32,000 nt of DNA from Candidatus Heimdallarchaeota archaeon B3_Heim (GCA_003144275.1 NJBF01000021.1:40724-72723); one strand, 5' to 3'; positions 1 through 29,281 are shown, counted from the stretch's first letter. A program made the numbers and translations. Notes: a model not told the origin generated them from the letters alone.

Positions 1-1410
1 AAGATTGTCCAAATTGCTGAATTAGCTGATATGCGATATGGTGTAAAAGGGTTCCTAGTATACCAACCATGGTCCACTATAGCAATAAAACGAATGTTTG
101 ACCTCTATGAACAAGAATTGGAAGAATTTGGACATAATCCAGTTATTTTTCCAAGTGTAATCCCTGAATCAAATTTTCAGGTCGAAGCTGATCATGTGGA
201 GGGATTTGCTCCTGAAGTGTTTTGGATTTCCTCGGCAGGAAGTACTGGTATGTTAGAGGAACGACTTGCCCTAAGACCTACAAGTGAAACAGCAATGTAT
301 CCTTTATACTCCTTGTGGATAAGAAGCTGGCGTGATTTACCTCTTAAACTCTATCAATCAGGCAAAGTGTGGCGATACGAAGGAAAATCTACACGACCTT
401 TCCTCAGGGGACGTGAATTCATCTGGATAGAATCCCACAACGTATTCACGACTATGGAAGAAGCGGAAGCACAAACCCGTGAAGATATGCAAATTTCGAT
501 AAATGTAATGCATGACCGTTTTGGAATTCCATTCATACAATTTCAGCGTCCAGAGTGGGATAAGTTTGCAGGAGCCGTTCATACATACGCTGCGGATACA
601 TTGATGCCCGATGGACGATTTCTTCAACTACCCTCTACTCATCTGTTAGGAGATAACTTTTCTAAGGCGTTTGGAATAAACTATATGGATGATGAAGGTG
701 TATCACATCCTGCATATCAGACTTGTTACGGCCCAGCAATTTCAAGAATTTTTGGTGGAATGATTGCTGTACATGGTGATGACTCGGGATTGATTTTTCC
801 TTTTGAAGTTGCTCCAGTTCAAGTGGTTATTGTCCCAATTTTGGCCAAAAAACAAGCAACTAAAGTCAAGAACTACGCTGAAGAACTCCGGATGCTTGTA
901 AAGGCTATGGGCTATCGAGTTCAAATTGATGCTAGTGATAAACGTCCAGGGGATAAGTACTATTACTGGGAGATGAAAGGAGTTCCTATACGCCTAGAAG
1001 TTGGCCGTCGTGAAGCAAAGGAGGATCAGATTACAATTTTTAGACGAGATAATCGAGAAAAAACTATAATATCCAAAACTGAATTAGAAGCAACAATAAA
1101 GAAGGTAGGTGCCGATCTGAATGAAAGTATTAAAGAACGAGCACAAGAATTTTTCGATTCTCGATTGGCCAGTGCCGAAACACTGAACGAATTAGTTGAA
1201 CATATTAAATCACGAAAGATGGTTAAAATTCCATGGTGTAGCATTGATTTAGACGGAGAAAATTGTGCTGAGGAGATTAAAGATCAATTAGCTGGTGCAG
1301 AAGTCCGGGGAATTGATGTTCAGGAAACAAAAATTCCGTCCAAGGACGAAAAATGCTTTATTTGCGGAAACCAAGCAAAGTGCTTTGTTTACGTTGGAAA
1401 ACAATACTGA
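1..1410 (+). CDS. proS: Prolyl-tRNA synthetase, archaeal/eukaryotic type (5'-truncated by window edge)
   Basis: The frame is open from base 1 (KIVQIAELADMRYGVKG), so the ATG at 31 is internal. Motifs: LRPTSET, WRYE..TRPFLRGREFIW, QTCYG, anticodon-binding domain (GVPIRLEVG), C-terminal Zn Cys cluster (C..C...CFICG). Confidence 0.97.
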   Translation, partial: KIVQIAELADMRYGVKGFLVYQPWSTIAIKRMFDLYEQELEEFGHNPVIFPSVIPESNFQVEADHVEGFAPEVFWISSAGSTGMLEERLALRPTSETAMYPLYSLWIRSWRDLPLKLYQSGKVWRYEGKSTRPFLRGREFIWIESHNVFTTMEEAEAQTREDMQISINVMHDRFGIPFIQFQRPEWDKFAGAVHTYAADTLMPDGRFLQLPSTHLLGDNFSKAFGINYMDDEGVSHPAYQTCYGPAISRIFGGMIAVHGDDSGLIFPFEVAPVQVVIVPILAKKQATKVKNYAEELRMLVKAMGYRVQIDASDKRPGDKYYYWEMKGVPIRLEVGRREAKEDQITIFRRDNREKTIISKTELEATIKKVGADLNESIKERAQEFFDSRLASAETLNELVEHIKSRKMVKIPWCSIDLDGENCAEEIKDQLAGAEVRGIDVQETKIPSKDEKCFICGNQAKCFVYVGKQY

Positions 1411-1422
1411 TCTTTATTACCA

Positions 1423-1971
1423 TTGGAAATGAACTTAATGCCCAAGGAAGAAAAGATTAGAACTGTTTCTACCATTCACGGCAAATCGTTTTCAGTCAAT
1501 CTTGATGAAGCAAAATTACCATCAGGAAGAATCACAGAACGGATTAGAGTAATCCATCCCGATGCATCAGCAGTTATACCCATATTAGATGATGGACGAA
1601 TTATCCTAGTTAAACAATTCAGGTATTCCATCCAAGAAGAAATGTTAGAAATTCCCGCTGGGAAAATAGATAAAGGTGAAACTGCTGAAGAATGTGCAAG
1701 ACGCGAGTTCGCGGAAGAAACGGGGTACTCCGTCTCTAATCTTGAATTCCTTCTCACGTATGTCCCTGCTATTGGATATAGTAATGAAAGATTACATATT
1801 TTCAAGGGAACAGACCTGAAAAAAATCCCTGAATTTGAATATCCGTCAGATGAAATTTCAAGATTAGAAATACTTTCCTTAGCAGAAATTCACACAAAAA
1901 TACATTCAGGTGAAATTCAGGATGGAAAAACAATTGTCGCCATGGCCTTGTTAAGTAAATGCTTCAAATAA
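1423..1971 (+). CDS. nudF: Nudix hydrolase, ADP-ribose pyrophosphatase family
   Basis: Nudix box GKIDKGETAEECARREFAEETG, preceded by QFRY...EIPAG and followed by the DGKT motif. The start is uncertain (TTG 1423 or ATG 1429/1438). Confidence 0.88.
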   Translation: MEMNLMPKEEKIRTVSTIHGKSFSVNLDEAKLPSGRITERIRVIHPDASAVIPILDDGRIILVKQFRYSIQEEMLEIPAGKIDKGETAEECARREFAEETGYSVSNLEFLLTYVPAIGYSNERLHIFKGTDLKKIPEFEYPSDEISRLEILSLAEIHTKIHSGEIQDGKTIVAMALLSKCFK

Positions 1972-2092
1972 AAATTGTGGCTGAGAGCAATTTTTGTGAT
2001 CGATCTATGAAAAAATATTTTCAGATAAGGCTAGTTTTCTTGAGTATTTAAACTATAAAATCTTATATAGGAAAAAGTACCTAGAAATAAGC

Positions 2093-2176
2093 TGGTATGC
2101 TAGGAACTTTTTAAAAAGGTTTTCTTGGTCTTCTCTCAAGTTCTGGATCTTAGGATACAGAAATCCTAGCATACCA
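2093..2176. repeat. 84-nt element bounded by perfect 13-bp inverted repeats (TGGTATGCTAGGA / TCCTAGCATACCA)
   Basis: Read directly: arms at 2093-2105 and 2164-2176, internal palindrome CTTTTTAAAAAG at 2107-2118, and two small hairpins. Confidence 0.8.
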
Positions 2177-2214
2177 CTCCCTCCCCCCATTATTAGGTAT
2201 GTTTGTTTCATAAA

Positions 2215-2946
2215 TTACTTCTTTGTAATTTTAAAGCTTTTAGAAATGAATTCAGGTAATGTTTTCTCAACAGGTCCAAGAATTGTCTTATTCGTCTCCG
2301 AAGATAATGGGGTTAACTCCAGATTGAATTCGTACGTTTCTAAATTCATATTCCCCTCTTTAGCAATAAAGGGAAAATTATTCACCGGATAAACTATCCC
2401 TGATGTTCCAATAATAAGCAACACATCAGTTTCTTTTAATCTGTTATAGGAAAATTGAATAATTTCAGAATTCAATGTTTCATTAAACCACACTACTTTT
2501 GGTCTAAGCATAGAGTTACATTTGATGCATTTGGGAATTTCTGGATTACTAAAAGTTTCTGTAGGTTCCCAGATAGTAATGTCGTGACATTGAATGCATC
2601 TTCGCTGGAAGATTTCTCCGTGGAGATGAATTACTTTACTTGAACCTGCACGCTCATGTAAATTATCAACGTTCTGAGTAAGCACTACAATATTATATCC
2701 AGAGGATTCTAAATTTTCTAGAGCCAAATGGGCCTCATTGGGCTTAGCCTGTGAGACTAATCCTAATCGCCAATAATACCACTCCCAAACTAGCTTGGGA
2801 TTACGAGCAAAAGCCTGAGGGGTAGCTAAGTCCATAACATTATATTTCTTCCATAGTCCATTAGTACCCCTGAAAGTAGGAATGCCAGAGGATTGAGATA
2901 CTCCAGAACCAGTTATTGCAGTTATTTTTGTGTCAAGCGATTTCAT
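2215..2946 (-). CDS. cobB: Sir2-family NAD-dependent protein deacylase, class III
   Basis: GSGVSQSSGIPTFRG, TQNVDNLHERAG, HG, Zn site CIQC/CIKC, LRPKVVWFNE, GTSG. The YxxR motif (WYYWR) is typical of class III desuccinylases. Confidence 0.95.
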   Translation of the reverse strand: MKSLDTKITAITGSGVSQSSGIPTFRGTNGLWKKYNVMDLATPQAFARNPKLVWEWYYWRLGLVSQAKPNEAHLALENLESSGYNIVVLTQNVDNLHERAGSSKVIHLHGEIFQRRCIQCHDITIWEPTETFSNPEIPKCIKCNSMLRPKVVWFNETLNSEIIQFSYNRLKETDVLLIIGTSGIVYPVNNFPFIAKEGNMNLETYEFNLELTPLSSETNKTILGPVEKTLPEFISKSFKITKK

Positions 2947-2991
2947 CCTAATCCACTCTCAAGACGAGTTGTAGTAATTATTATAGATAGG

Positions 2992-3049
2992 TTTTGTGAT
3001 AACTTAGGATATAATACATACATTATTCGGTTCACAATTTATCACAAAA
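2992..3049. promoter_or_regulatory. 11-bp inverted repeat in the divergent cobB/cca intergenic region, possible regulator site
   Basis: TTTTGTGATAA (2992-3002) and TTATCACAAAA (3039-3049), with an extra TCACAA half-site at 3032-3037. Confidence 0.35.
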
Positions 3050-3151
3050 GAACATTAATTTATCAACACAAATGAAGGAAGAAGCAAAAAAGTAAAATCC
3101 AATATTGCAATCACTCACTTTAGGAAAAAGACTCTATCCTGAGTTGACGCT

Positions 3152-4315
3152 GTGTACGATTTAAAGCAAAAAGGAGAAGAATTCTCTACATTATTAGTAC
3201 CTGCGTTAGTAAAGATCATAAGAACACTCCAACTACACGGAAAAGAAGTATTCATTATTGGAGGGGCCGTACGTGATTTCTTGTGCGGTCATCAGGTTAA
3301 AGATTTTGATGTTGCTACAAATGCTGTTCCTGAGCAAATTATTAAGTGGTTAAGTGAAGTAAATATAAAAACCAAGCCTATTGGGGGGAAATATGGAACT
3401 GTTCTGGCCATCAAAGGCAAAAATGCCTTCGATATAAGTACATATAGAAAAGAAACATTTATTACATATGGACAACCTCCCAAGATCACATTTGTAGATT
3501 CTTTGGATGACGATTTAATTAGACGTGATTTCCGAATCAACTCGATATTATATGATCCTGAGAAAAGTGAAATCATCGATAAATATGGAGGTTGGGCTGA
3601 TATTCAGAATCAATCAATCAGTATGATAGGAGACCCAAATATTCGATTAAAAGAGGATGGATTGAGGGTAATTCGTTTAGCAAGATTCATGTCTAAGTTT
3701 AATTTAAACCCAGAACCTGAAATACTGGACGCAGTTCGTTTGGTAGGTGATTCAGTCAAGTTTAGAAGTACCAAGGTAATTCAAATAGAATTATTCAAAT
3801 TTCTGCGTGTTAAGGACTTTCAGAAAGGATTGATGTTGTTATTTGAAAATAAAATACTTCATGGTATTTTTCCCCATTATCCTTTCCAGTTGGCTTTTGA
3901 GGATCACAAGCATTTTTCCTTCTTGATTAATAATTTTTGTTCTCTTCTGATTAGTGATGAATTAGCACGATTGTTCGGTGCATTATTGCTATTTTCAGAT
4001 GAAGCTCAACTTAATGAATCCCATTTTGAACGTATAGGTGAAAATTTAGCACTATCAAATCGCCAACAACAGTTACTACAACGTTTATATGTATCTTGGA
4101 AAAATTTTCCTAGAAATAAAGATAGAAATGAAATTAAAAGATGGGTAAGAGCAACTGGTATAAATACAAGTGAAATAGTAGCTAAAATCTTTTTTCTGAG
4201 TTTACTCAAAGTAGAAGATGCCGTACACGACCAAGAGGAGGAGTATCTGAAAACAATTCAGGAAATGGTGTCTAATCTTAAAACTGGGAAAAAAATAATT
4301 CCAGCTGAGGATTGA
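3152..4315 (+). CDS. cca: Class II tRNA nucleotidyltransferase (CCA-adding / poly(A) polymerase superfamily)
   Basis: GGAVRD...DFDVAT, YRKE, DLIRRDFRINS and EDGLRVIRLARF class II motifs. No HD domain is apparent. GTG start. Confidence 0.88.
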   Translation: MYDLKQKGEEFSTLLVPALVKIIRTLQLHGKEVFIIGGAVRDFLCGHQVKDFDVATNAVPEQIIKWLSEVNIKTKPIGGKYGTVLAIKGKNAFDISTYRKETFITYGQPPKITFVDSLDDDLIRRDFRINSILYDPEKSEIIDKYGGWADIQNQSISMIGDPNIRLKEDGLRVIRLARFMSKFNLNPEPEILDAVRLVGDSVKFRSTKVIQIELFKFLRVKDFQKGLMLLFENKILHGIFPHYPFQLAFEDHKHFSFLINNFCSLLISDELARLFGALLLFSDEAQLNESHFERIGENLALSNRQQQLLQRLYVSWKNFPRNKDRNEIKRWVRATGINTSEIVAKIFFLSLLKVEDAVHDQEEEYLKTIQEMVSNLKTGKKIIPAED

Positions 4316-14927: not shown

Positions 14928-15386
14928 TTAGTCTAATTCTGCGAGTACGTCTTCAAGTAGACTTTTTGAGATATTTTCTTCTACTGTTTGAGCAATTCGC
15001 AGTAGATTGATCTGATCACTTATTTCTGTGGTATAGCGATTAATTCCCTTTTTCACCTTCTGAACATTGGCATTCTGGGAAATAACTCCAACTAAAATGC
15101 AATCTTCGCTGATCGATTGTAAAATAAGTTTGCCAACACTAAACTCAGAAAAAACAAAGTCCAGAGGTCCTAATTGTACTTCATTTCCTTGTTGTCTCAT
15201 TCCAATGAATAGTGCCATGGATAGAGCACCAATTCCTTCTAATTCTAGTATTGAAGATGATCTCGTTACATTAGCTAACGTAAGCCCAGTTGAATCTGTA
15301 AGCATCGCATGTTGGAGTCCAGGAGTATTTTTAATGATTTTAACAAGAATATTGTGAATACTAAGTGAGATATCCATGAATTTCAC
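14928..15386 (-). CDS. Roadblock/LC7 domain protein with C-terminal helix
   Basis: helix-PGL..AML.DSTGL.LA-helix(GALS.ALF)-EF..G.LIL pattern typical of Roadblock/MglB. Confidence 0.8.
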   Translation of the reverse strand: MKFMDISLSIHNILVKIIKNTPGLQHAMLTDSTGLTLANVTRSSSILELEGIGALSMALFIGMRQQGNEVQLGPLDFVFSEFSVGKLILQSISEDCILVGVISQNANVQKVKKGINRYTTEISDQINLLRIAQTVEENISKSLLEDVLAELD

Positions 15387-15635: not shown

Positions 15636-17480
15636 ATGTCCAATGGGTTTCATAATCGAATGGTTCGGATCAATCTTTCCACAAATCAAATAAAAACGGA
15701 AACTTTGCCAGTAAATGCCGTTAAGAATTTTATGGGTGGGAAAGGGCTAGGTGCATTCATTTTAACAAACGAGCTTGATTCAGGAATTGATCCTCTAGGA
15801 CCTGAAAATAAAATAATCGTTACCACGGGTCCACTCCAAGGATCAGTTGTACCTATTTGTGGACGTTATTGCATAGTGACAAAATCTCCTCTTACTGGAT
15901 TATTTTTAGATTCTCATGCTGGAGGATATATTGGTCCTGAGTTAAAATTTGCCGGTTGGGATGCAATTGTCATTGAAGGAGTAGCAAAGTCACCTTGTTT
16001 TCTCTCAATTATCGATGATGATATTCAACTCAAAGATGGGGAACATCTCAAAGGTTTAACAACTCTAGATAAAGAATTTGCCCTCAAAGAAGAGCTAGGA
16101 GAATCCAGGGCGAGAATAATGTCAATTGGGCCTGCAGGGGAAAATCTCGTTAAGTTTGCATGCGTTACAAGTGATAGTTTTAGAAATATTGGTCGAGGTG
16201 GGGTAGGAGCTGTGTTTGGCAGTAAAAACTTACTTGCTATTGCAATAAAAGGATCCAACAAAAATCTACCAGTTGCTAACGAAGAAAAATTAAAGCAATT
16301 AGCGAAGAATCTTCGTGAAAGAGCAGCAAAAGGAAGAGAGGTCGATCATTGGATTTATCAGGTTGGTACTCCTGCGTTGGTGAATTTTGCATCTCAAGGT
16401 GACCAGATACCCGTCAGAAATTTCCAGTTCGGGACTGTAGAGAATCCTGAAGAATTTGGACGAGAAGCCGTAGAAGCTCATAAAACTAGAAAAATCCCTT
16501 GTTATAAGTGTGTAATACAATGTGCTCATGTATTTAGTGATGATTATTCCTTTAAAGATCATAAATATCATATTGCTGCAGTTCCTGAGTACGAAACGTT
16601 AGGTTTGATTGGTACAAACTGTGATGTAAAATTTGAAACCGTTGTTGAAGCAAACTATCTCCTAAATAAGCTTGGTCTTGATTCAATAAGTGCAGGGAGT
16701 GTTTGTGCTTTTTTCATGGAATGTTCGGAAAAAGGACTAGTACCAACCGAATATACAGAAGAAAAGATCATGTTTGGTGATGAAAAGGGACTTCTGTCAT
16801 TAATCCATAAGATTGCGTATCGTGAGGGTGTAGGTGAGCTATTAGCTGAAGGAACCAGGAAAACTGCAGAAGTATTCGGCCATGATTCCCATAAATTTGC
16901 TATAAATGTCAAAGGATTAGATATGGCTGCGTGGGATCCAAGAGGAAAGTTAGCTTTGGGTTTGAGTTACGCTACGGCAGCTGTAGGTGCTTCCCACCTA
17001 CGTGGATGGCCTTCAACGTCCAAATTACCCAAAGATGAAGAAGTTTCACCTGAGATAGTCCGAACGCTGATTGAGAGTACTGACCTAAAGCTAGTTAAGG
17101 ATTCACTTATTATCTGCCACTTTACTCATTCCATTATACCTGCACTTGATATTAAAGATACTCAAGCACTTTATGAGGCTGTTACTGGCTCTTCTACTAA
17201 TGTTGTAGAGATTGCACAAAATATTTGGAGTTTAACGCGGTATTTCAACATGCGTGAGTTTATGATTCATAAAAATCCCGCAGGTGTTTATGATACACTC
17301 CCCCACCGAATTTTAAATGAACCCCTTCCAACAGGAAGTGCTGCAGGATCAAAAGCGTTCATTTCGAAAGAAGATTTCCAGCAAGGATTAAAATATTTAT
17401 ATGATATGAGACGTTGTAAAGATGATGGGGATCTCACTGATATTGAAGTTACGAGAATCAAGAATCTTGTTGGAATTTAA
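15636..17480 (+). CDS. aor: Aldehyde:ferredoxin oxidoreductase (tungsten-type)
   Basis: GGKGLG, KSPLTG, LKFAGWD, IGPAGENLV, GRGGVGAVFGSKNL, CYKCVIQC, PEYET, GLDSISAG, DPRG, HLRG, DSLIICHF. Confidence 0.95.
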   Translation: MSNGFHNRMVRINLSTNQIKTETLPVNAVKNFMGGKGLGAFILTNELDSGIDPLGPENKIIVTTGPLQGSVVPICGRYCIVTKSPLTGLFLDSHAGGYIGPELKFAGWDAIVIEGVAKSPCFLSIIDDDIQLKDGEHLKGLTTLDKEFALKEELGESRARIMSIGPAGENLVKFACVTSDSFRNIGRGGVGAVFGSKNLLAIAIKGSNKNLPVANEEKLKQLAKNLRERAAKGREVDHWIYQVGTPALVNFASQGDQIPVRNFQFGTVENPEEFGREAVEAHKTRKIPCYKCVIQCAHVFSDDYSFKDHKYHIAAVPEYETLGLIGTNCDVKFETVVEANYLLNKLGLDSISAGSVCAFFMECSEKGLVPTEYTEEKIMFGDEKGLLSLIHKIAYREGVGELLAEGTRKTAEVFGHDSHKFAINVKGLDMAAWDPRGKLALGLSYATAAVGASHLRGWPSTSKLPKDEEVSPEIVRTLIESTDLKLVKDSLIICHFTHSIIPALDIKDTQALYEAVTGSSTNVVEIAQNIWSLTRYFNMREFMIHKNPAGVYDTLPHRILNEPLPTGSAAGSKAFISKEDFQQGLKYLYDMRRCKDDGDLTDIEVTRIKNLVGI

Positions 17481-17482
17481 TT

Positions 17483-19885
17483 TTGATATTCGAACAATCC
17501 AATTTGAGTGATGTAGAAAGAAATTTCCTTGATAATGGTCTAAGCTTGATATCTGATAGTGCTGATCAGGATGAACCCATATTAGAAAAAATGATTGCAT
17601 ATATTATCTCATTGACCCTTCTTGCAGAAGCGAAATCTTCAGAATCCTCCATTTTTGACAATATTCAAAAATTACCTTCAGTAATATGCACAGTAGATCT
17701 CCTTGATCGAATTTTTGAATTTTCTGAGTTTACTAGGAGACGTGGTGACATAACAAAGAAACTTATGCAGTTTATTAAAGCAGAGAAACATATCAATGCG
17801 ATAAAAATCGATAAAGAGAAACTCCTTCATCTCCACAATCTGGTTCCTTTTAGTCGTCATGACTGTTCATTTAATTTAAATCTCGGATCTCGCTTGTTAT
17901 CTCTGGTAGTTGAGAATTTATCAGTCTCTTCTTGGATGAAGAAAAAGAGAGGGACATATTACACACTTCCCACTGATGCAGATTTAATTTCTCTGTTGTC
18001 TAGCTACAGATTTTTACAACAATTAGCTCGAAAAACGACAGATGAAGATCTTTTAAGTTTATTAATATCAAAAACCGCTAAAAAGTCGAATTTATTCATA
18101 CATTCAGGTTTTCCTTCTGAAATAACCATTCTTGATCCTACATGTGGTTCAGGAACCTTTTTAGTACAAATTGCACAACTTTTGGGGGAATTAGGGATTA
18201 AAACTGGTAGAAGTTTGAAAATATCATTGTGGGGAATGGATCTTGATCCAATCGCAATAATGGTTACTCAATTGCGATTATTTTTCCTAGAGTTTCTCTT
18301 TGACGCGAAACTTGGGTCACATTCAATTCAAATTACTACTTCTTTGTCATGTGGAGATTTTTTAACTGAAAAATTTGATCAGAAATTTGACTTGATAGTT
18401 GGCAATCCCCCCTATGTACGACATGAGGACATTGGAATAAAAAATTCCCCAGATTATAAAAAATCTCTTCAGCAAAAGTTTTCAGACTTTTTGGAGCCCA
18501 ACATCAGACTAGATCGTAAAAGCGATTATCTGATATATTTTTGCTTAAAAAGTATAAGTCTCTTGAGTTCTAAAGGAGTCTTAGCCTTTTTAACTTCAAA
18601 TGCTTGGCTTGAAGTGAAGTATGGAAAAACCTTGCAAGATCAATTAATAGCTTTATTGGCGGTAAATAAGTTATCGACTTGTGAAATCATACATCAAGCA
18701 GGTTCAAGATTTTGGAAACAACTAGGTATAAATTCAGTCATCTTTCTAGCTTCGAAGAAGGTTAAGAAAGGTGTCTTAAGCAATAGAATATTTTTTACTG
18801 AGTCAGTAAAAACATTAAACCAAGTTCCAATAGCTTCTTTAAAGAATGGGGTCATATTTTGTAGGGAATATTCTTCTGAGAATTATCGAACTGAAGCTAT
18901 TTCAATAGCAGAATTGAAATCTACACATAAATGGGCAGGTACTTTCTTAAGAGCATCTAAAGAAGAGCGAGGGATTTTACAAAAAATTGACGCACAAGGA
19001 TCCCCTCTCTCAAGGCTAGCGAATGTACAATTTGGGATTAAGACAGGTGCAAATGATTTCTTTCATGTATCAGTGGAAAAATTAAATGAGAAGAAAAGTT
19101 CAGTAGAAATAAAAAGTAGATCTAATTTTAGAGGGAGGATAGAGTCTGAATTTCTTTTCCCTTTGGTTAAAAGTCCCGCTGAATGCAAAGGTTATGTAAT
19201 TCCACCCAAATTTACCCCTAAAGTCTGGCTATTCAACTGTCAAAAGCCATTGGACCAATTAAAGCGTACAGGTGCTCTGACGTATATACAATGGGGTGAG
19301 AGCAATCAAGTACCAATTAAACAAGGAAGAAGAATGGGTTCAACCGTAAAAGGGTTTCACTTATTGAGAAGTTTAAGTCAAAGAGATCCGTGGTATGCCT
19401 TACCTACCTTTTCGATTCCTGATCTGGTATGGATCAAAAGTTATCATGATAAACCAGGGTGTTTATTAAATCGAGCAAAATTTTTACCAGATCAGCGGTT
19501 TTATGGTATAACTGTAAATGATTCTAAGGATATTCCAGTTATTTTTGCTTATCTCAACAGTAGTTTTGTCTGGGCCCAGATGGAGCAAGCTGGAAATACA
19601 AATATGGGTTTTGGAGTATTAGATACTAATGTATACTGGTTGAAGTCAGTGAGAATTCCAACGAACCTGACATTGAAACAAAACCAAGATTTAACATCTC
19701 TTTATAACGATTTAATAAATGAAACATCTAGAACATCGATCACCACGGTTTCTTATTTACGTGAGCAGATCGATAAGTTTTTTGCTATGTTATTAGGTAT
19801 ATCCGATGAAGAACTTAGCATCATATTCCAGTTTATCCAGAGAAGTGTGGATAATCGTCTCAAAGGGAATACGAAAGATAATTAA
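17483..19885 (+). CDS. N6-adenine DNA methyltransferase (gamma class, Eco57I/TaqI-like with C-terminal target-recognition region)
   Basis: RGTYYT, ILDPTCGSGTFL (motif I), GMDLD, IVGNPPYVR (motif IV), YLNS. TTG start. Confidence 0.9.
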   Translation: MIFEQSNLSDVERNFLDNGLSLISDSADQDEPILEKMIAYIISLTLLAEAKSSESSIFDNIQKLPSVICTVDLLDRIFEFSEFTRRRGDITKKLMQFIKAEKHINAIKIDKEKLLHLHNLVPFSRHDCSFNLNLGSRLLSLVVENLSVSSWMKKKRGTYYTLPTDADLISLLSSYRFLQQLARKTTDEDLLSLLISKTAKKSNLFIHSGFPSEITILDPTCGSGTFLVQIAQLLGELGIKTGRSLKISLWGMDLDPIAIMVTQLRLFFLEFLFDAKLGSHSIQITTSLSCGDFLTEKFDQKFDLIVGNPPYVRHEDIGIKNSPDYKKSLQQKFSDFLEPNIRLDRKSDYLIYFCLKSISLLSSKGVLAFLTSNAWLEVKYGKTLQDQLIALLAVNKLSTCEIIHQAGSRFWKQLGINSVIFLASKKVKKGVLSNRIFFTESVKTLNQVPIASLKNGVIFCREYSSENYRTEAISIAELKSTHKWAGTFLRASKEERGILQKIDAQGSPLSRLANVQFGIKTGANDFFHVSVEKLNEKKSSVEIKSRSNFRGRIESEFLFPLVKSPAECKGYVIPPKFTPKVWLFNCQKPLDQLKRTGALTYIQWGESNQVPIKQGRRMGSTVKGFHLLRSLSQRDPWYALPTFSIPDLVWIKSYHDKPGCLLNRAKFLPDQRFYGITVNDSKDIPVIFAYLNSSFVWAQMEQAGNTNMGFGVLDTNVYWLKSVRIPTNLTLKQNQDLTSLYNDLINETSRTSITTVSYLREQIDKFFAMLLGISDEELSIIFQFIQRSVDNRLKGNTKDN

Positions 19886-21312: not shown

Positions 21313-21343
21313 AGCGGATTACCTCCGCTCTTTCTTTTTTTTT
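21313..21343 (+). terminator. Hairpin plus T-tract between convergent genes
   Basis: AGCGGA-TTACC-TCCGCT followed by a long T-rich run. Confidence 0.6.
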
Positions 21344-21887
21344 AAGTTTCAATTTTAGCTTTTGTTATGATATCTCGAGCTAATGTAATGAAAGCGTCTT
21401 CAATTGCCTCTCCTGTTTTGGCAGATGTTTCTATGAAGCCCGCGTTCAAAGATTTTGATTTGACAAATCCTTGAATAGTCTTTAAACTGCTGGGAATTTC
21501 CTCTCGTAAATCAATCTTATTTCCAACAAGTACAACAGGGAGATCATCATAAGTTTCTGCTCGCTCTCTGACTTCTTGTACCCACGAGTCGAGAGATTCC
21601 AAGGATTTAGGCTGGGTTACATCATAAATGGCAAGAGCGCCCATTGCACCCTTATAGTATGATTTCATGACATTTCTAAAGGCAGGTTGTCCAGCTAAAT
21701 CCCAAATTTGCCATTCTATATTAATTCCGTCAATTTTTGTCTTCAAAAAAGCGAAATCAGCTCCCATTGTGGCAAGAAAATCAGCTCGAAACCCTTCCCC
21801 CATGTATCGACGCCGAATCGATGTTTTACCCACCGCACCGTCCCCCAAAAGGATTACTTTGAATAATAACGTTGGCATCGTAAACAT
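21342..21887 (-). CDS. Rab-like small GTPase (Ras superfamily)
   Basis: G1 GDGAVGKT, G2 TMGADF, G3 WDLAGQ, YYKGAMGA, G4 GNKID, G5 ETSAKTG. No C-terminal Cys. Confidence 0.95.
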   Translation of the reverse strand: MFTMPTLLFKVILLGDGAVGKTSIRRRYMGEGFRADFLATMGADFAFLKTKIDGINIEWQIWDLAGQPAFRNVMKSYYKGAMGALAIYDVTQPKSLESLDSWVQEVRERAETYDDLPVVLVGNKIDLREEIPSSLKTIQGFVKSKSLNAGFIETSAKTGEAIEDAFITLARDIITKAKIET

Positions 21888-21955: not shown

Positions 21956-22543
21956 ATGAAATCTGAGGCTAATCTAAACACGAAATTATTAGTATTTGTA
22001 GTTGGAACCTCTGGAAGTGGGAAAGATAGCGTGATGCAAGAAACAGTCTCTTATTTAGCCTCTCATAACATACCTGCCTCTACATTGAGGCGAATCATCA
22101 CTAGATCTCCAGATAAGAATGAAGAATCAACATTTATGACAACAGAAGATTTTTTGAAGCTTATGAAGAATAATGAGTTTGCTCTTTCATGGCATATTTA
22201 TGATAATTGGTACGGGTGTGGATGGACTCCTATAAAGGATGCAGTAACTCGAAATGAACTTCTCTTAATCAATGTATCAAGAAGTATTCTATTCAAGGCG
22301 CGGGAAGTATTTCCTGAGTGTTTGATTGTACATGTGACGGTACCAAAAGAAATTGCAGAATCTCGAATCAAGAAAAGAGGAAGAGAAGATGGGAGAGGAT
22401 TAACAACTAGATTAAATAGAATGAAAAGTAATGTTGAAATGCCGACTCCAAATAAAACTGTTGAAAACACAGGAGATCTTCATAAAACTGCAGAAGAGCT
22501 CGGAAAATATTTAAAAGAACATTATCTAGCAGTTAGAGGTTGA
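21956..22543 (+). CDS. phnN: Ribose 1,5-bisphosphokinase PhnN / guanylate-kinase-like P-loop kinase
   Basis: VVGTSGSGKDSV, RRIITR, FALSW..Y..WYG, INVSR, RGRE: closer to PhnN than to Gmk. Confidence 0.75.
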   Translation: MKSEANLNTKLLVFVVGTSGSGKDSVMQETVSYLASHNIPASTLRRIITRSPDKNEESTFMTTEDFLKLMKNNEFALSWHIYDNWYGCGWTPIKDAVTRNELLLINVSRSILFKAREVFPECLIVHVTVPKEIAESRIKKRGREDGRGLTTRLNRMKSNVEMPTPNKTVENTGDLHKTAEELGKYLKEHYLAVRG

Positions 22544-24237: not shown

Positions 24238-25497
24238 CTAATAAAAGCGATTATGTTCCACGCTTGTTTGAGAAATAATCTTACCATTTTTTATCGTAGT
24301 TCTCGCAGGTGGAGTTGTACGTATTGCTTCATGCACATTCTTTACTCCGTGTAAAACCACTAGATCTGCGGGAGCTCCTTTTGTCAATTGATGCTCAACA
24401 TCCATAGTTTTTGCTGCGTTTTTCGTTATGGTGTCGTATAATACATCAATTTCGGATATGGTAGTCATTTTTGCCGCATGACCCAACAAATTTGCCACTT
24501 CAAGCATGTCTCCGTTACCAAAGGGATAATAGGGATCATGTACACAATCTTGACCAACAGTAACATTTACTCCTGCACTCAGTAATTCTTTTACTCGTGT
24601 GATGCCTACTCTCTGCGCTCCTGTATCTAATCGTCCTTGAAGAACCATATTAGTCGGGGGGTTCGTTACGACATTAATTCTTGCTTTTTTCACTAATTCT
24701 ATTACACGAGCAGCATGATAATTATCATAAGAGGATAACGCACAAATGTGATCAACAGTGATTTTGCCTTGATAATTCTCATCGATAGCTCTAGCGGCTA
24801 GATATTGAAGAGTACGAGAATTAGGGTCATCTGTTTCATCGGTATGGGAATCTATGGAAACATCGTACTTTTTAGCTAACGAAAGCAAAATATTGACATG
24901 TTTTTTAGAATGTTCCTCTGTAAATTCATTATGTGGCATTCCACCCAAAACCATATCCATCCCTCCTAGCTCTAGTGCCTTTTCTAACATTTCTTCCGTC
25001 CCTTCATCCTTTAATATTCCTTCTTGTGGGAAAGCAACTATTTGAAGATCAATAATATCTTTAAAAGCTTCTTTAGTAGCTAACAACCCTTTTAACGGCA
25101 TAAGTCCTCCAATAGAGTCGATATCAACATGGGTTCGGATGTGAGTTACACCAAATTTAATTTGATTATGGATAACCTCTGAAGCCCGTTTTTTGATATT
25201 TTCAACAGTATATTTACGTTTTACTTCCCATGTCTTTTGAATAGCTTCCCACAGGGTACCGGATTGATTCGGTTCAATAATGTCACCAATAAGAACTTTA
25301 TCAAGGTGAATATGTGGGGAAATTAAACTTTCTGTTACTAAAGATTGTTCTGCATCAAGAACTTGATCATAATCAGTATCCTTAATCTTAATGTCCGCCT
25401 TGTTAATTTCTGTTATGATTCCTTGATTAATGACAATGCTGACTAATTTTCCTTCCCTTGTAAGAGCATTCTTGATAACAAAACTCATTTCATTCAT
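24238..25497 (-). CDS. codA: Cytosine deaminase-like amidohydrolase (bacterial CodA type)
   Basis: PHIHLDK, RTHVD, AFPQEG, HTDETDDP, DHICAL, GQDCVHDPYYPFGNGDML. Confidence 0.88.
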   Translation of the reverse strand: MNEMSFVIKNALTREGKLVSIVINQGIITEINKADIKIKDTDYDQVLDAEQSLVTESLISPHIHLDKVLIGDIIEPNQSGTLWEAIQKTWEVKRKYTVENIKKRASEVIHNQIKFGVTHIRTHVDIDSIGGLMPLKGLLATKEAFKDIIDLQIVAFPQEGILKDEGTEEMLEKALELGGMDMVLGGMPHNEFTEEHSKKHVNILLSLAKKYDVSIDSHTDETDDPNSRTLQYLAARAIDENYQGKITVDHICALSSYDNYHAARVIELVKKARINVVTNPPTNMVLQGRLDTGAQRVGITRVKELLSAGVNVTVGQDCVHDPYYPFGNGDMLEVANLLGHAAKMTTISEIDVLYDTITKNAAKTMDVEHQLTKGAPADLVVLHGVKNVHEAIRTTPPARTTIKNGKIISQTSVEHNRFY

Positions 25498-25538: not shown

Positions 25539-26852
25539 TTATTCGATTTTTTCATATTCTTTTTCATCAATAATCTGCTTCAAATGCTGTGCAACTAACC
25601 AAATCTCATGATATTGATTATATAATGCTATAGGCGCCATTCTTATTACATTAGGTGGCCGAAAATCACTAATGACATTGTGATAAATTCTTAAACATTC
25701 ATTAATGCGTCTTGCTTCAGTGTCATGCTCAATAGCTATATGTCCTGACCGCTTTGCTGGGTTTCGTGGAGTGCCAATTCTAAAATTATAGGGATCTTTT
25801 GTAAGAAGGTTGTCAACAAGATATATAAGATATTCTGTCAGGTGAATTGATTTTTTTCTAATATTGTGAATTCCAGCTTTCAAATGGAGGTTTAATGCCC
25901 CCTCGATCGGTGCTGAACAAAGAATACTTGAACTAGAAATTTGCCATCCTCCAGCAGATTTTGCATGGTTAAAGTCCAATGACATATCAAATTGTCTTGC
26001 TTTTTCATACCCAAACCACCCTGCTAGACCAGGTTCCTTCTCGAAATGTTTCCTATTCAGATAAAGGAATCCTGTTCCTCCTGGGCCAGAGTTTAAATAT
26101 TTGTAACTGCACCAAAAAGCAAAATCTATTCCCCATTCGTCAAATTTGTGAGGAACAACACCTACAGAATGGCTACAATCCCACCCAATTGGAATATTCC
26201 GGTCATTCGCAGCCTTTGTTATATATTCCATATTGAATAATTGCCCACTTCTGTATAATGCCGATGGAAGAAGAATTAACGCCACATCGTCATCCATACG
26301 CTTAATAATTTTATCTTCATCAATTGTGCGACCATCATTACTTGGAATAAGTATGAGATGTTCTTTCGGATCCAAACCTTTCAATTTTATCTGACTTTTC
26401 AATGCATAGATATCTGTGGGAAAATCTAATTCGTCTGCAATTATTTTAGTACGTTTTCCTTCTTCTGGGTGATAAAACGTACTGACTAGGGAGTGTAGAT
26501 TAACTGTGGTAGTCCCCGTCGCAACTACTTCCTCTGGCTCAGCTCCAACAAGTGGAGCGGCCTTTGCGCCAAGATCTTCTCCGAAGTAAAACCAAGAATT
26601 CTTCGGCTTATACCAGCCAAGGATACCAAGTTCTTTCCAATCTTTTATGATTTTAAGCAGAGATTGTTCTGCTTCCTTTGAAAATAAACCTAAAGAGTTA
26701 CCGTCAAAGTAGATTGTGCCATTACCGGGAAAATAAAAGTGATCTCGATACTCTGAGAGAGGATCCTCTAAATCTAACTGTAAAGCAATACTCTCATCCA
26801 CTGAAAATTTGTTTGTCAATTCTAATGCTCCTGTATCCTTGATGGCGATCAT
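25539..26852 (-). CDS. kynU: Kynureninase (PLP-dependent)
   Basis: YFDGNSLGL, TTTVNLH, FPTDIYA, WDCSHSVG, WCSYKYLNSGPGG (PLP Lys), GWFG, DFRPPNVIRMAP. Confidence 0.95.
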   Translation of the reverse strand: MIAIKDTGALELTNKFSVDESIALQLDLEDPLSEYRDHFYFPGNGTIYFDGNSLGLFSKEAEQSLLKIIKDWKELGILGWYKPKNSWFYFGEDLGAKAAPLVGAEPEEVVATGTTTVNLHSLVSTFYHPEEGKRTKIIADELDFPTDIYALKSQIKLKGLDPKEHLILIPSNDGRTIDEDKIIKRMDDDVALILLPSALYRSGQLFNMEYITKAANDRNIPIGWDCSHSVGVVPHKFDEWGIDFAFWCSYKYLNSGPGGTGFLYLNRKHFEKEPGLAGWFGYEKARQFDMSLDFNHAKSAGGWQISSSSILCSAPIEGALNLHLKAGIHNIRKKSIHLTEYLIYLVDNLLTKDPYNFRIGTPRNPAKRSGHIAIEHDTEARRINECLRIYHNVISDFRPPNVIRMAPIALYNQYHEIWLVAQHLKQIIDEKEYEKIE

Positions 26853-26972: not shown

Positions 26973-27740
26973 TTGAATAATGTGCTAAATAAAGCTATAA
27001 AGTTGATAAAAATGTCAGCAGATGAAGATATTCTAAGACCAAAACCGAATAAAGTGAACCCCGAAAATTCTCCTTATTCAGCTAAATTTATAAATTTAGT
27101 TGATGGCTCCAAAATGGTAGTTCGTCAGATTACAAGAGAGGAAACGAAAAAGGTTATCCCATTATTTTATGATATTGTAAAAATCAACAAAGACTTTTAT
27201 GATCTTGTAGGCGCAAGAATTCTAGGGGAATTGTTGGCATACGTGCAATATCGTGTACAGGATGAGTATGTCCTTCTTGGCCAAGTACATGATACAGGAG
27301 AAGTTTTAGGATTAGTAAACGGCTATTTGAGTTTCAATGATCCGAAGATTGGAATCAGTTATCACACTATGACCTTCAAACGAGGGCTTCGTGTTGGTGC
27401 TCACCTCTTTGTTGCTAAGATGGAGCATCATCTGGACTATCTCCAAAATGATGAAGTTAAGATCGTTGCTGAATCCCATATTGGTTTTCGTCGATGGATG
27501 GAGGAATTACGATTGGAAGAGAATTTCGATTTCGAACATCCTGTGGGTGGCGTCCCTAGCTATAATCTTACTAGAAAGAACTGGGAATCTTATGTGAAAC
27601 CAGAGCGATGTTTTGGAACAGAAAATCGACCTATTCCTGAAGAATATCTTAAAACAGTCAAAGAGAATATTCTATTACCTGAAGATGTTATGTACCAAAT
27701 CACGGGTACTCCAAAAGATGAATTTTTGAAGGGATTTTAA
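26973..27740 (+). CDS. Hypothetical protein, possibly GNAT-fold
   Basis: The ORF abuts the thiolase-like gene (TAA then ATG). The segments VVRQ.., ISYHT.TFKRGLRVGAHLF and VAESHIGF resemble acetyltransferase motifs. The likely start is ATG 27012. Confidence 0.7.
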   Translation: MNNVLNKAIKLIKMSADEDILRPKPNKVNPENSPYSAKFINLVDGSKMVVRQITREETKKVIPLFYDIVKINKDFYDLVGARILGELLAYVQYRVQDEYVLLGQVHDTGEVLGLVNGYLSFNDPKIGISYHTMTFKRGLRVGAHLFVAKMEHHLDYLQNDEVKIVAESHIGFRRWMEELRLEENFDFEHPVGGVPSYNLTRKNWESYVKPERCFGTENRPIPEEYLKTVKENILLPEDVMYQITGTPKDEFLKGF

Positions 27741-28928
27741 ATGCGTGATGTTACCATAATTGGCGCAGGAATGGGAAGCCGTTGGGGAAAATACAGTGGT
27801 TCCCTAATTGAGATGATGGCCGAAGCTTCGCTTTCTGCGATTGATGATGCAGGAACTGATGAAATTGATGCAGTCTTTGTTGCTAACATGGGAGCGGGGA
27901 GAATTAATAATCAAACCGCACTCGGTTCAGCGTTGATTGACTATCTTAATTTGTTTCCTGCAGTTGGAGCTTCCATCGAAAATGGGCCTGCCTCTGGTGC
28001 TACTGCCGCTCGCATTGGCTATATGGCTATTGCATCAGGAGTCCATGATGTTGTGATGATCACTGGCGGGGAAAAGATGCGCGTTGCCCCAGGACCTGTT
28101 GTTACTGATTTTGTAGCTACTATGGCTCATCCAGAAGCAGAATATATTCATGGTATCACGTTTCCAAGTTTGGGTGCATTGCTTGCACGATTATATTTTG
28201 AAAAATATGGAGTGACATCAGAAGATCTAGCAAGAATAGCGATCAAGAATCATCAAAATGGCTTGAAGAATCCACATGCTCATATTCGACAAAAAATCAC
28301 TATGGAAGGGATTTTAACAAGTAGAGAAGCAAAATTAAATAATCCGATGATAGCTGATCCTTTACATTTATATGATATGTGCCCCGTCAGTGATGGTAGT
28401 GCTTCGATTATAATGTGTTCTATGAATAAAGTTCAAGAATTTGAAAAGACTCCTATCATTAAATTTGCAGGTACTGGACAAGGTATGGATACAATGGCTG
28501 TTCACGAACGAGAAGATCCTACATTCTTAAAAGCTGTGAAAATTGCCTCAGATCAGGCGTTCAAAATGGCTGGTTTGACCCGAGAGGATATTGATTTTGC
28601 TGAAATCCATGATGCCTTTGAAATCTTGGAACTAGCGGAGTTAGAGTCTGCAGGTTTTTACGAGCGTGGAAAGGCCCATCTGTCTGTTAGAGAAGGGGAA
28701 ACAGAACTTACGGGCAAATTTCCTGTAAATACTTCGGGTGGTTTAAAAGCTCGTGGACATCCCGTTGGAGCCACTGGTGTAGCACAGTTGTGTGAATTAG
28801 TATGGCAATTACGTGGAGAAGCAGGTGAAAGACAGATACCTAATGATCCAAAACATGGTTATGCTGTAAATTTTGGAGGGTTTGGAAACAATGTGGTTTC
28901 AACAATCCTTTCTCGAGTTAAAGGGTGA
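27741..28928 (+). CDS. Thiolase-fold protein (archaeal/SCP-x type) lacking the canonical nucleophilic Cys
   Basis: GGEKM, KNHQNG..NP.AH, DMCPVSDG, EIHDAF, NTSGGLKARGHPVGATG. ENGPASG replaces ExACASG. Confidence 0.9.
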   Translation: MRDVTIIGAGMGSRWGKYSGSLIEMMAEASLSAIDDAGTDEIDAVFVANMGAGRINNQTALGSALIDYLNLFPAVGASIENGPASGATAARIGYMAIASGVHDVVMITGGEKMRVAPGPVVTDFVATMAHPEAEYIHGITFPSLGALLARLYFEKYGVTSEDLARIAIKNHQNGLKNPHAHIRQKITMEGILTSREAKLNNPMIADPLHLYDMCPVSDGSASIIMCSMNKVQEFEKTPIIKFAGTGQGMDTMAVHEREDPTFLKAVKIASDQAFKMAGLTREDIDFAEIHDAFEILELAELESAGFYERGKAHLSVREGETELTGKFPVNTSGGLKARGHPVGATGVAQLCELVWQLRGEAGERQIPNDPKHGYAVNFGGFGNNVVSTILSRVKG

Positions 28929-29281
28929 AAAAAATGTCTATACATACACCGATTGCATATAAATGCTTGAATTGTGGAAAATTGCATTATCCTAAACATG
29001 GACGTTGTCTTCAATGTAAGCACCGAGAATTTGAAGAAGTCCCCGTTTCCTCCGAGGGAACCTTAATTACATTTACACAGCTCAAAGCGCCTCCCTCCGG
29101 TATTGAATCTCGCTCCTTATTCCTGGGGGTGATTGATCTAGGTGATGTGAGGTACACAGGTCAAATTGAGGTTGAATCTATTGATAGTTTGCATTCTGGC
29201 ATGAAACTTGTAGCTACATGGAAACAGGTTCGAACTATCGACAATCGTCCGATTTATGGATTTGTTTGGGGACCTCCTTAG
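28925..29281 (+). CDS. DUF35 family Zn-ribbon/OB-fold protein
   Basis: CLNCGKLHYPKHGRCLQC followed by G.LITFT..., overlapping the thiolase-like gene stop by 4 bp. Confidence 0.88.
   Translation: MKKMSIHTPIAYKCLNCGKLHYPKHGRCLQCKHREFEEVPVSSEGTLITFTQLKAPPSGIESRSLFLGVIDLGDVRYTGQIEVESIDSLHSGMKLVATWKQVRTIDNRPIYGFVWGPP

Follow-up and report, generated by a model that had tools for sequence, protein, structure and literature searches.

Several described systems combine a thiolase-fold protein with a DUF35 protein. In archaea, the two belong to a complex with HMG-CoA synthase (HMGCS) that stands in the context of mevalonate synthesis (M. thermolithotrophicus, 6esq and 6et9). PhlABC, CsATase and MucABC (5m3k, 9skh, 9vbo) are biosynthetic systems of three components, in which a thiolase-fold protein with a cysteine acyl-enzyme (PhlC) and a DUF35 protein are joined by a third subunit of the HMGCS/KAS III fold. 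In Ltp2–ChsH2 and Sal–Shy (6ok1, 9myr), the thiolase fold lacks the nucleophilic cysteine and depends on DUF35, which is fused to a hydratase; the tyrosine of a YDxF or YDCY motif is the catalytic base in Ltp2 and Sal (PMC12329534). Here we describe a three-gene unit of Candidatus Heimdallarchaeota archaeon B3_Heim, located at positions 26973-29281 of the 32,000-nucleotide stretch of DNA that was analysed (hereafter the window). It encodes a GNAT-fold protein, a thiolase-fold protein without catalytic cysteines, which we call ThlX, and a DUF35 protein. This trio, probably a three-protein enzyme, is widespread in archaea and bacteria, and databases mislabel it as acetyl-CoA acetyltransferase.

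Among the described systems, the thiolase of the archaeal HMGCS/DUF35 complex and PFC_04095 of P. furiosus (7yvy) are closest to ThlX, with 38-40% sequence identity and template-modelling (TM) scores of 0.87-0.93. The archaeal complex has in common with the trio the SCP2-type fold, the GHP histidine, a small adjacent DUF35 protein and a third subunit, the complex of the trio being a predicted one. The differences lie in the trio's proline for the nucleophilic cysteine, its alanine for the cysteine of HDCF and its insertion at ThlX residues 195-201; further, the third partner is HMGCS in one case and a GNAT-fold protein in the other, and the context of the trio is probably the catabolism of nucleobases or ureides rather than mevalonate synthesis.

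The three genes are co-directional on the plus strand and tightly coupled, and the coordinates given for this coupling in the original prediction proved correct. The gene for the GNAT-fold subunit occupies 27012..27740 and codes for 242 residues. Its open reading frame (ORF) extends upstream to TTG 26973, but ATG 27012 is probably the start, since homologues begin at the residue that matches this codon in the alignments. The TAA stop of this gene (27738-27740) directly abuts the ATG of the ThlX gene (27741..28928; 395 residues, SCP2/archaeal thiolase type), whose TGA stop (28926-28928) in turn shares a 4-bp overlap, GTGA, with the GTG start of the DUF35 gene (28925..29281; 118 residues). An alternative in-frame start of the latter is ATG 28934. 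The window is part of contig C43 of a 3.95-Mb Asgard genome with 36% G+C, and close homologues carry the names Hodarchaeales or Heimdallarchaeota. Among sequencing data sets, none of RNA was listed as containing the stretch, and those of DNA shared at most 0.21 of its words. The absence of an adjacent HMGCS gene, the second point of the prediction that concerned the layout, holds as well: domain scans found no such gene among the ORFs of the window, and the genome has a single HMGCS-like gene, which lies on contig C19. This gene (50343-54404, locus 985-2664, minus strand) codes for 559 residues and scores 176 bits against TIGR00748, below the cut-off; its product is extended at the C-terminus, and the added part, which has a zinc-ribbon-like CPKCG motif, may be a fused DUF35-like domain.

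By sequence and by predicted structure, ThlX belongs to the thiolase superfamily. It matches Thiolase_N, Thiolase_C_1 and Thiolase_C in Pfam (E-values of 1.2e-19 and 2.6e-43 for Thiolase_N/Thiolase_C) and reaches 410.7 bits against NCBIfam PRK06064, under the cut-off of 420. Sequence matches in the PDB included 7yvy (2.9e-88) and 6esq (8.4e-75). The AlphaFold2 (AF2) model (predicted local distance difference test, pLDDT, 86.7) has the five-layer fold of the superfamily. In Foldseek comparisons it superimposes on 7yvy with TM 0.87/0.93 and on the set of 7yvy, 6esq and 4yzo with TM 0.83-0.94 at 33-40% identity, and is more distant from Ltp2, Sal, PhlC and TbSLP (20-26% identity).

What sets ThlX apart is the loss of the catalytic cysteines. 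The nucleophilic cysteine of the E-x-x-C-x-S-G loop is replaced by Pro83 (codon CCT, 27987-27989) within the motif ENGPASG (residues 80-86, 27978..27998), which pairwise alignments place opposite the cysteine loops IEAACASG of 7yvy and VEAACASG of 6esq, as had been predicted for the archaeal ExACASG motif. The acid/base cysteine of HDCF is replaced by the invariant Ala292 in HDAF (residues 290-293, 28608..28619). Here the prediction was right about the presence of HDAF, but the motif is not diagnostic by itself, as the cysteine-bearing P. furiosus protein 7yvy also reads HDAF. The GHP motif (residues 339-341, 28755..28763), reported as intact, indeed retains the thiolase histidine, with His340 invariant. 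Of the 120 best ThlX homologues, 118 are full-length, and all 118 have Pro83 and read ENG(P)ASG, H-D/N-A-F, GHPVGATG and NFGGFGNNV. Even homologues with no more than 55-60% identity, from Korarchaeota, Micrarchaeota and Bipolaricaulota, have this set of motifs. Across 24 diverse members, E80, N81, G82, A84-G86, C214, H290, A292 and H340 are invariant; Pro83 is present in 23, the exception being an alanine in a lineage without the GNAT gene (G061). Such constancy of Pro83 far exceeds what chance would give. Because both catalytic cysteine positions are replaced family-wide, while His290 and His340 are kept throughout, ThlX and the trio are, judged by these residues, very probably non-thiolytic and would carry out neither acyl-enzyme nor Claisen or thiolytic chemistry, in agreement with the original prediction that the unit is not an ordinary thiolase.

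ThlX contains exactly three cysteines, at positions 214, 226 and 351. Cys214 is found in 24 of 24 members, the other two in 10 and 3. As the canonical, cysteine-bearing thiolase paralogue of the same genome on contig C52 also has a cysteine at the position of Cys214, the alignments mark this residue as no family-specific replacement for the nucleophile.

The sequence record characterises ThlX as a conserved family and not as a decayed thiolase. A quick maximum-likelihood tree unites the family in a single clade (Shimodaira-Hasegawa-like approximate likelihood ratio test, SH-aLRT, 98; stem length 1.62), separate from the paralogue on C52. All three genes of the trio are under purifying selection, with ratios of nonsynonymous to synonymous substitution rates (dN/dS) of 0.03-0.18 overall, 0.03-0.13 for ThlX, 0.06-0.11 for the GNAT gene and 0.06-0.18 for the DUF35 gene. 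Public names of ThlX homologues are ‘acetyl-CoA acetyltransferase’ or ‘thiolase domain-containing protein’.

A comparable loss is seen in ST0096 of Sulfolobus tokodaii (4yzo), the second-best PDB match to the ThlX family profile (1.3e-99). It likewise has no nucleophilic cysteine (VDNTSGSG) and keeps GHP, but differs from ThlX in reading N-T-S and HDMA instead of N-G-P and HDAF and in having no insertion. We found no report on its function in the literature searched.

Two further thiolase-like loci of the genome deserve mention. The paralogue on contig C52 (2087-6217, locus 350-3850) is a canonical thiolase of 380 residues with TEAACSSS and HDCF; it is followed by a 421-residue DUF35-SDR fusion and preceded by a zinc alcohol dehydrogenase and an enoyl-CoA hydratase fragment. 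The set resembles a proposed archaeal fatty-acid synthase of ketothiolase, DUF35 and ketoreductase (bioRxiv 10.1101/2024.07.05.601840). Contig C47 (30826-34881, locus 1285-3228) encodes a second, different cysteine-less thiolase-like protein (422 residues, IDNGGNTGGS, HDAF) with a DUF35 partner of 220 residues, adjoining a UbiA-type prenyltransferase-like membrane protein.

The protein encoded upstream of ThlX, which the original prediction had called GNAT-like, has no match at E ≤ 0.01 in Pfam or NCBIfam. Its AF2 model (pLDDT 93.3, predicted TM score 0.91) has the GNAT fold, which is defined by a mixed β-sheet with splayed strands β4 and β5. The top 50 Foldseek matches in the PDB were all GNAT acyltransferases with a probability of 1.00, VIA-align gave Z-scores up to 12.6 (root-mean-square deviation 3.0, 142 aligned residues) over residues 20-200, and its neighbouring clusters in the Atlas are automatically named ‘putative N-acetyltransferase’, so that the assignment to this fold can be upheld. 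Invariant residues include S116, H118, T119, the loop R124-G-L-R-V-G129, K136, E138, E154 and S155. In ordinary GNATs, the loop Q/R-x-x-G-x-G/A between β4 and α3 binds the pyrophosphate of coenzyme A (CoA). In the trio protein, this motif A loop is R124-G-L-R-V-G129, with an arginine at the place of the usual central glycine.

The DUF35 subunit consists of a C4 zinc ribbon followed by an OB fold. Both of its Pfam matches remain just below the gathering thresholds (zf-ChsH2 25.0 against 27.1, OB_ChsH2_C 20.7 against 23.2), and the match to NCBIfam BbsA has an E-value of 9.7e-13. The four zinc-ribbon cysteines (C14, C17, C28 and C31; nt 28964-29017, plus strand) are invariant in 25 homologues.

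An exhaustive profile-free search with the GNAT protein yielded 104 representative clusters, none of them annotated. A scan of GTDB species genomes gave more than 564 loci, of which we used the best 80 (67 bacterial, 13 from Hodarchaeales) to count gene order and neighbours. The order GNAT, ThlX, DUF35 is kept in 77 of these 80, spanning Hodarchaeales and more than 12 bacterial phyla. The bacterial groups comprise Bacillota, Thermotogota, Bipolaricaulota, Verrucomicrobiota, Riflebacteria, Elusimicrobiota, Bacteroidota and others, with Lentisphaerota, Atribacterota, Actinomycetota and Myxococcota as further ones; cultured carriers among the Bacillota are Neomoorella stamsii, Clostridium rhizosphaerae, Oceanirhabdus and Acididesulfobacillus. 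The same order occurs on two long metagenome contigs (L035, L037), as well as in Micrarchaeota, Korarchaeota and one further archaeal contig. The upstream gene had been proposed as a third partner that should stand next to ENGPASG homologues elsewhere. It does so in the 77 loci and in the three further archaeal ones, and the prediction of the complex described below also speaks for the proposal. We found no description of the trio in the literature searched, and the paper on the reductive uric acid pathway does not mention its genes.

Two relatives with 65% identity in ThlX (G060 and G061) keep ThlX and DUF35 and have no GNAT gene. In its place, a guanylate-kinase-like gene is located upstream of ThlX (L031, 959-1504; L032, 989-1504). 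We considered this ORF as a counterpart of the GNAT gene and rejected it, as it is unrelated to the GNAT protein. Its product has the same Pfam matches as a guanylate-kinase-like P-loop protein encoded in the window at 21956-22543 (plus strand), 5 kb upstream of the trio.

We folded the three chains together with their alignments and scored the GNAT protein as the partner. The interaction prediction score from aligned errors (ipSAE) was 0.67, 0.64 and 0.68, compared to 0.00 for the best control; among solved complexes, 58 of 80 attain this mark, among mismatched pairs 2 of 110. At least 77% of the contacts agreed between runs, and the pLDDT of the partner was at least 78. The predicted interface on the ThlX chain comprises residues 184-202 (28290..28346, plus strand) and 211. 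Within this surface lies an insertion of seven residues (195-201, around EAKLNNP) that, according to the alignments, is absent from 7yvy, 6esq and 4yzo and also from the paralogues on C52 and C47. All GNAT-linked members have this insertion; in G061, which lacks the GNAT gene, it is three residues shorter. The predicted contacts of the GNAT protein include its β4-α3 loop R124-G-L-R-V-G129. From these models, we consider it likely that the three subunits form one physical complex, in which the GNAT subunit is predicted to dock on the family-specific insertion of ThlX, next to the thiolase substrate entrance. A complex of this composition was not found in searches of the PDB and the literature.

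The gene neighbourhood points to a metabolic context. Within 4 kb of the trio, the 67 bacterial loci contain AllF/FdrA-like genes in 31 cases, AllH in 12 and AllG in 9, next to PucR/CdaR regulators (13), PF04199 cyclase-family hydrolases (12), three-subunit molybdenum (Mo) hydroxylases (6-7) and NCS2 (xanthine/uracil) permeases (5). The extended clostridial loci are single operons, with the order PucR | AllH-AllF-AllG-cyclase-GNAT-ThlX-DUF35-Mo hydroxylase-permease; C. rhizosphaerae has the same operon genes in another order, and in Acididesulfobacillus the operon is joined by a carbamate kinase gene whose product exceeds the arcC cut-off. In E. coli, AllFGH converts oxalurate, an N-acylurea, to carbamoyl phosphate and the amide oxamate, of which the bacterium makes no further use (PMC11326118).

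An amidohydrolase is the constant neighbour of the trio in Hodarchaeales. In the window, its gene lies at 24238..25497 on the minus strand, divergent from the trio, and its product matches Amidohydro_3 and Amidohydro_1 in Pfam and scores 351.7 bits against NCBIfam PRK07572 ‘cytosine deaminase’, below the cut-off of 438. Such a cytosine-deaminase-like gene adjoins the GNAT gene in all 13 Hodarchaeales loci, and one follows DUF35 in Moorella naiadis (L059); we regard it as a likely functional associate of the trio. The kynureninase gene that lies between amidohydrolase and trio (25539..26852, minus strand; TIGR01814 362.3 bits, above the cut-off of 246.4) is present in just 5 of the 13 loci and was rejected as a core part, to which it probably does not belong; a downstream membrane protein of 242 residues, conserved in 1 of the 13, was likewise rejected.

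Counterparts of the bacterial operon genes are found elsewhere in the genome. Contig C44 encodes AllF and AllG (41% and 51% identity to Clostridium), a cyclase (53% identity) and a Mo hydroxylase, to which C30 adds a closer one (47.5%); AllH is on C74 and a carbamate kinase on C93. In a comparison of 83 genomes of the class, we found GNAT, the ENGPASG gene and AllG in no genus other than that of the window. AllG is present in 13 of the 14 relatives with the GNAT gene and absent from both genomes without it. This co-occurrence is no more than suggestive, because the genomes are kin. Taken together, a connection of the trio to nucleobase or ureide catabolism appears somewhat more probable than not. 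The complete Hodarchaeales trio, its constant cytosine-deaminase-like neighbour and the dispersed counterparts of bacterial operons in the same genome are new here; so is the coincidence of the predicted GNAT docking site with a family insertion that is shortened where GNAT was lost.

Our main reading, to which we assign a probability of roughly 45%, is that the trio makes up a single conserved enzyme that handles acyl-CoA without thiolysis and has malonyl-type chemistry in pyrimidine or ureide catabolism. ThlX would still bind acyl-CoA in a preserved CoA tunnel, its two histidines would polarise the thioester and stabilise the enolate, and DUF35 would be its usual zinc-ribbon/OB clamp. The complex would take up a malonyl-type (β-carboxy or β-oxo) C3 unit and carry out decarboxylation, acyl transfer or both via the CoA thioester; the role of the GNAT subunit would be to form or use up the acyl-CoA or amide bond in an exchange of amide and thioester. 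The trio would thus be the terminal module of a nucleobase/ureide route, for which the bacterial operons suggest a permease, a Mo hydroxylase, a cyclase-family ring hydrolase, an AllFGH-like transcarbamoylase and a carbamate kinase. The best-fitting route would lead from uracil via barbiturate and ureidomalonate, and the substrate may be the C3 remnant of an opened pyrimidine-like ring, with ureidomalonate yielding carbamoyl phosphate and a malonyl or malonamoyl unit. In the Asgard genome, the adjacent cytosine-deaminase-like enzyme would feed this route, the other genes being dispersed over other contigs.

Malonyl-type decarboxylation would be the most economical chemistry because of the analogy with condensing enzymes that have lost their cysteine and with TbSLP. 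Condensing enzymes in which the active cysteine is replaced keep or gain malonyl decarboxylase activity. ThlX shows a similar pattern to KS-Q enzymes, in that the cysteine is lost and His290 and His340 are kept, but the replacement is a proline, not a glutamine. KS-Q and chain-length-factor enzymes and T. brucei TbSLP (5ab4-5ab7) are, like ThlX, members of the thiolase superfamily in which the nucleophile is replaced and the oxyanion/histidine machinery is kept. They differ from it in the glutamine and in having no DUF35 or GNAT partner, and the identity to TbSLP is about 21%. Malonyl-thioester decarboxylation is a known or residual activity in this group; the cysteine-poor TbSLP decarboxylates malonyl-CoA weakly (PMC12329534). 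By this analogy, we tentatively propose a malonyl-type decarboxylase or transferase as the specific activity of the trio. It is a more speculative and rather doubtful step to see the trio as the final enzyme in an undescribed oxidative pyrimidine pathway that would conserve energy and be dispersed over several loci in Hodarchaeales. Such a pathway would lead from cytosine or uracil through barbiturate and ureidomalonate to carbamoyl phosphate and a malonyl or malonamoyl C3 unit, and from there to acetyl-CoA, CO2 and NH3, with the cysteine-less thiolase fold as CoA-thioester decarboxylase and the GNAT subunit exchanging the amide and thioester bonds.

Several points weigh against this reading of the trio. 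The chemistry is a deduction from which residues are lost or kept and from the genes around the trio, and decarboxylating KS-Q enzymes have a glutamine, not a proline, at the cysteine position. The ipSAE scores of 0.64-0.68 express the model's own confidence and are not a measurement. With its atypical R-G-L-R-V-G loop, which is predicted to be part of the interface, the GNAT subunit may not bind CoA as other GNATs do. In the genome of the window, AllFGH, the cyclase and the Mo hydroxylases are encoded away from the trio, the co-occurrence with AllG within the genus is not independent evidence, and about half of the bacterial loci, notably those of Thermotogota and Bipolaricaulota, have no catabolic gene at all within 4 kb. 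The trio itself is not always kept together: in the relative G065, the GNAT gene adjoins the amidohydrolase (C42) and ThlX and DUF35 are on another contig (C15), and there are more distant GNAT homologues (34-38% identity) that no thiolase accompanies. On contig C15 of G065, the thiolase-like/DUF35 pair sits behind an FG-GAP repeat protein.

Another explanation is that only the GNAT subunit is catalytic, as an N- or O-acyltransferase of some pathway intermediate, and that ThlX with DUF35 is a pseudoenzyme that serves as a non-catalytic scaffold binding or delivering acyl-CoA. The loss of both thiolase cysteines and the confidently predicted GNAT fold are in line with this, and so are the distant GNAT homologues, which stand without a thiolase beside AllFGH and Mo-hydroxylase genes; moreover, the thiolase/DUF35 pair scaffolds a third subunit in PhlABC and HMGCS complexes (PMC12329534). 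Yet the most conserved parts of ThlX are precisely ENGPASG, HDAF, GHPVGATG and NFGGFGNNV, and in the same genome pairs ThlX is more conserved than the GNAT protein (86% against 66-70% identity), which is unusual for a mere scaffold. Given further that the G060 and G061 lineages dispense with GNAT and keep the pair, and that the CoA-binding loop of GNAT is atypical and predicted to be buried in the interface, we judge this explanation unlikely.

The original prediction had also raised the possibility of a retro-aldolase. An enzyme like Ltp2 or Sal would cleave a 3-hydroxyacyl-CoA to an aldehyde or ketone and a short acyl-CoA, and both pair a cysteine-less thiolase fold with DUF35, as the trio does (PMC12329534); the Foldseek TM scores to 6ok1 and 9myr are about 0.80-0.83. 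The catalytic tyrosine of YDHF or YDCY, however, is a histidine in every ThlX member (HDAF or HNAF), and the cysteine essential in Sal is an alanine. There is no MaoC hydratase fused to or adjoining the DUF35 of the trio, which is free-standing with 118 residues, nor did we find a hydratase domain among the scanned ORFs of the window. Ltp2 and Sal have no GNAT partner, and ThlX is 25% identical to them, compared to 38-40% to true archaeal thiolases. Because the catalytic-tyrosine motif and the hydratase partner are both missing, we disfavour this option and consider it improbable.

With its three-part architecture of thiolase fold, DUF35 and third subunit, the trio could also be compared to PhlABC and MucABC, and might then be a CoA-independent C-acyltransferase that adds an acyl group to, or removes it from, a cyclic tri-oxo ring (barbiturate or a phloroglucinol-like compound), with the GNAT protein replacing PhlA. 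ThlX superimposes on PhlC with TM 0.86, barbiturate is an aza-analogue of phloroglucinol, and in Neomoorella genes of a kind used in phloroglucinol breakdown lie directly upstream of the trio. In PhlC, however, the acyl group is carried by Cys88, as indicated by the CsATase C88S entry, and ThlX has Pro83 at this position; the third subunit has the GNAT instead of the HMGCS/KAS III fold, the identity to PhlC is 24%, and the context of the trio appears catabolic and not biosynthetic, which makes this explanation quite improbable. The genes upstream of the trio in Neomoorella stamsii (L058, 332-3851) are those for a β-keto acid cleavage enzyme (BKACE), a PF04199 cyclase and a canonical thiolase, a set of the kind reported for anaerobic phloroglucinol degradation.

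That ThlX is an ordinary thiolase, with Cys214 or another residue as relocated nucleophile, is highly improbable: Cys214 is invariant and aligned in the pantetheine-tunnel segment (x-C-P-V-S-D-G), at a position that we take to correspond to Ser247 of the Zoogloea thiolase, but the same cysteine in the canonical paralogue means that it does not compensate for a loss, the acid/base cysteine is gone as well, and the other two cysteines are not conserved.

Thousands of database genes that carry the label acetyl-CoA acetyltransferase cannot be thiolases, among them Asgard genes that enter reconstructions of the metabolism of the eukaryotic ancestor; Hodarchaeales are the Asgard lineage closest to eukaryotes. 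Counting the trio proteins as thiolases inflates the inferred capacity for fatty-acid, butyrate or mevalonate metabolism. The trio also adds a new architecture to the thiolase/DUF35 multi-enzymes, one in which the third subunit has the GNAT fold and catalytic cysteines are absent, and points to a step in anaerobic nucleobase/ureide catabolism that is conserved from Clostridia and Thermotogota to Korarchaeota and Hodarchaeales.

Away from the trio, the window encodes two eukaryote-like signature proteins typical of Asgard archaea, a Ras-family small GTPase (21342-21887, minus strand; Pfam Ras 3.8e-44) and a Roadblock/LC7 protein (14928-15386, minus strand). The region 15636-19885 (plus strand) codes for a tungsten-type aldehyde:ferredoxin oxidoreductase (AFOR_N, AFOR_C) and, directly after it, for an Eco57I/MmeI-like type IIG restriction-modification methyltransferase of 800 residues.

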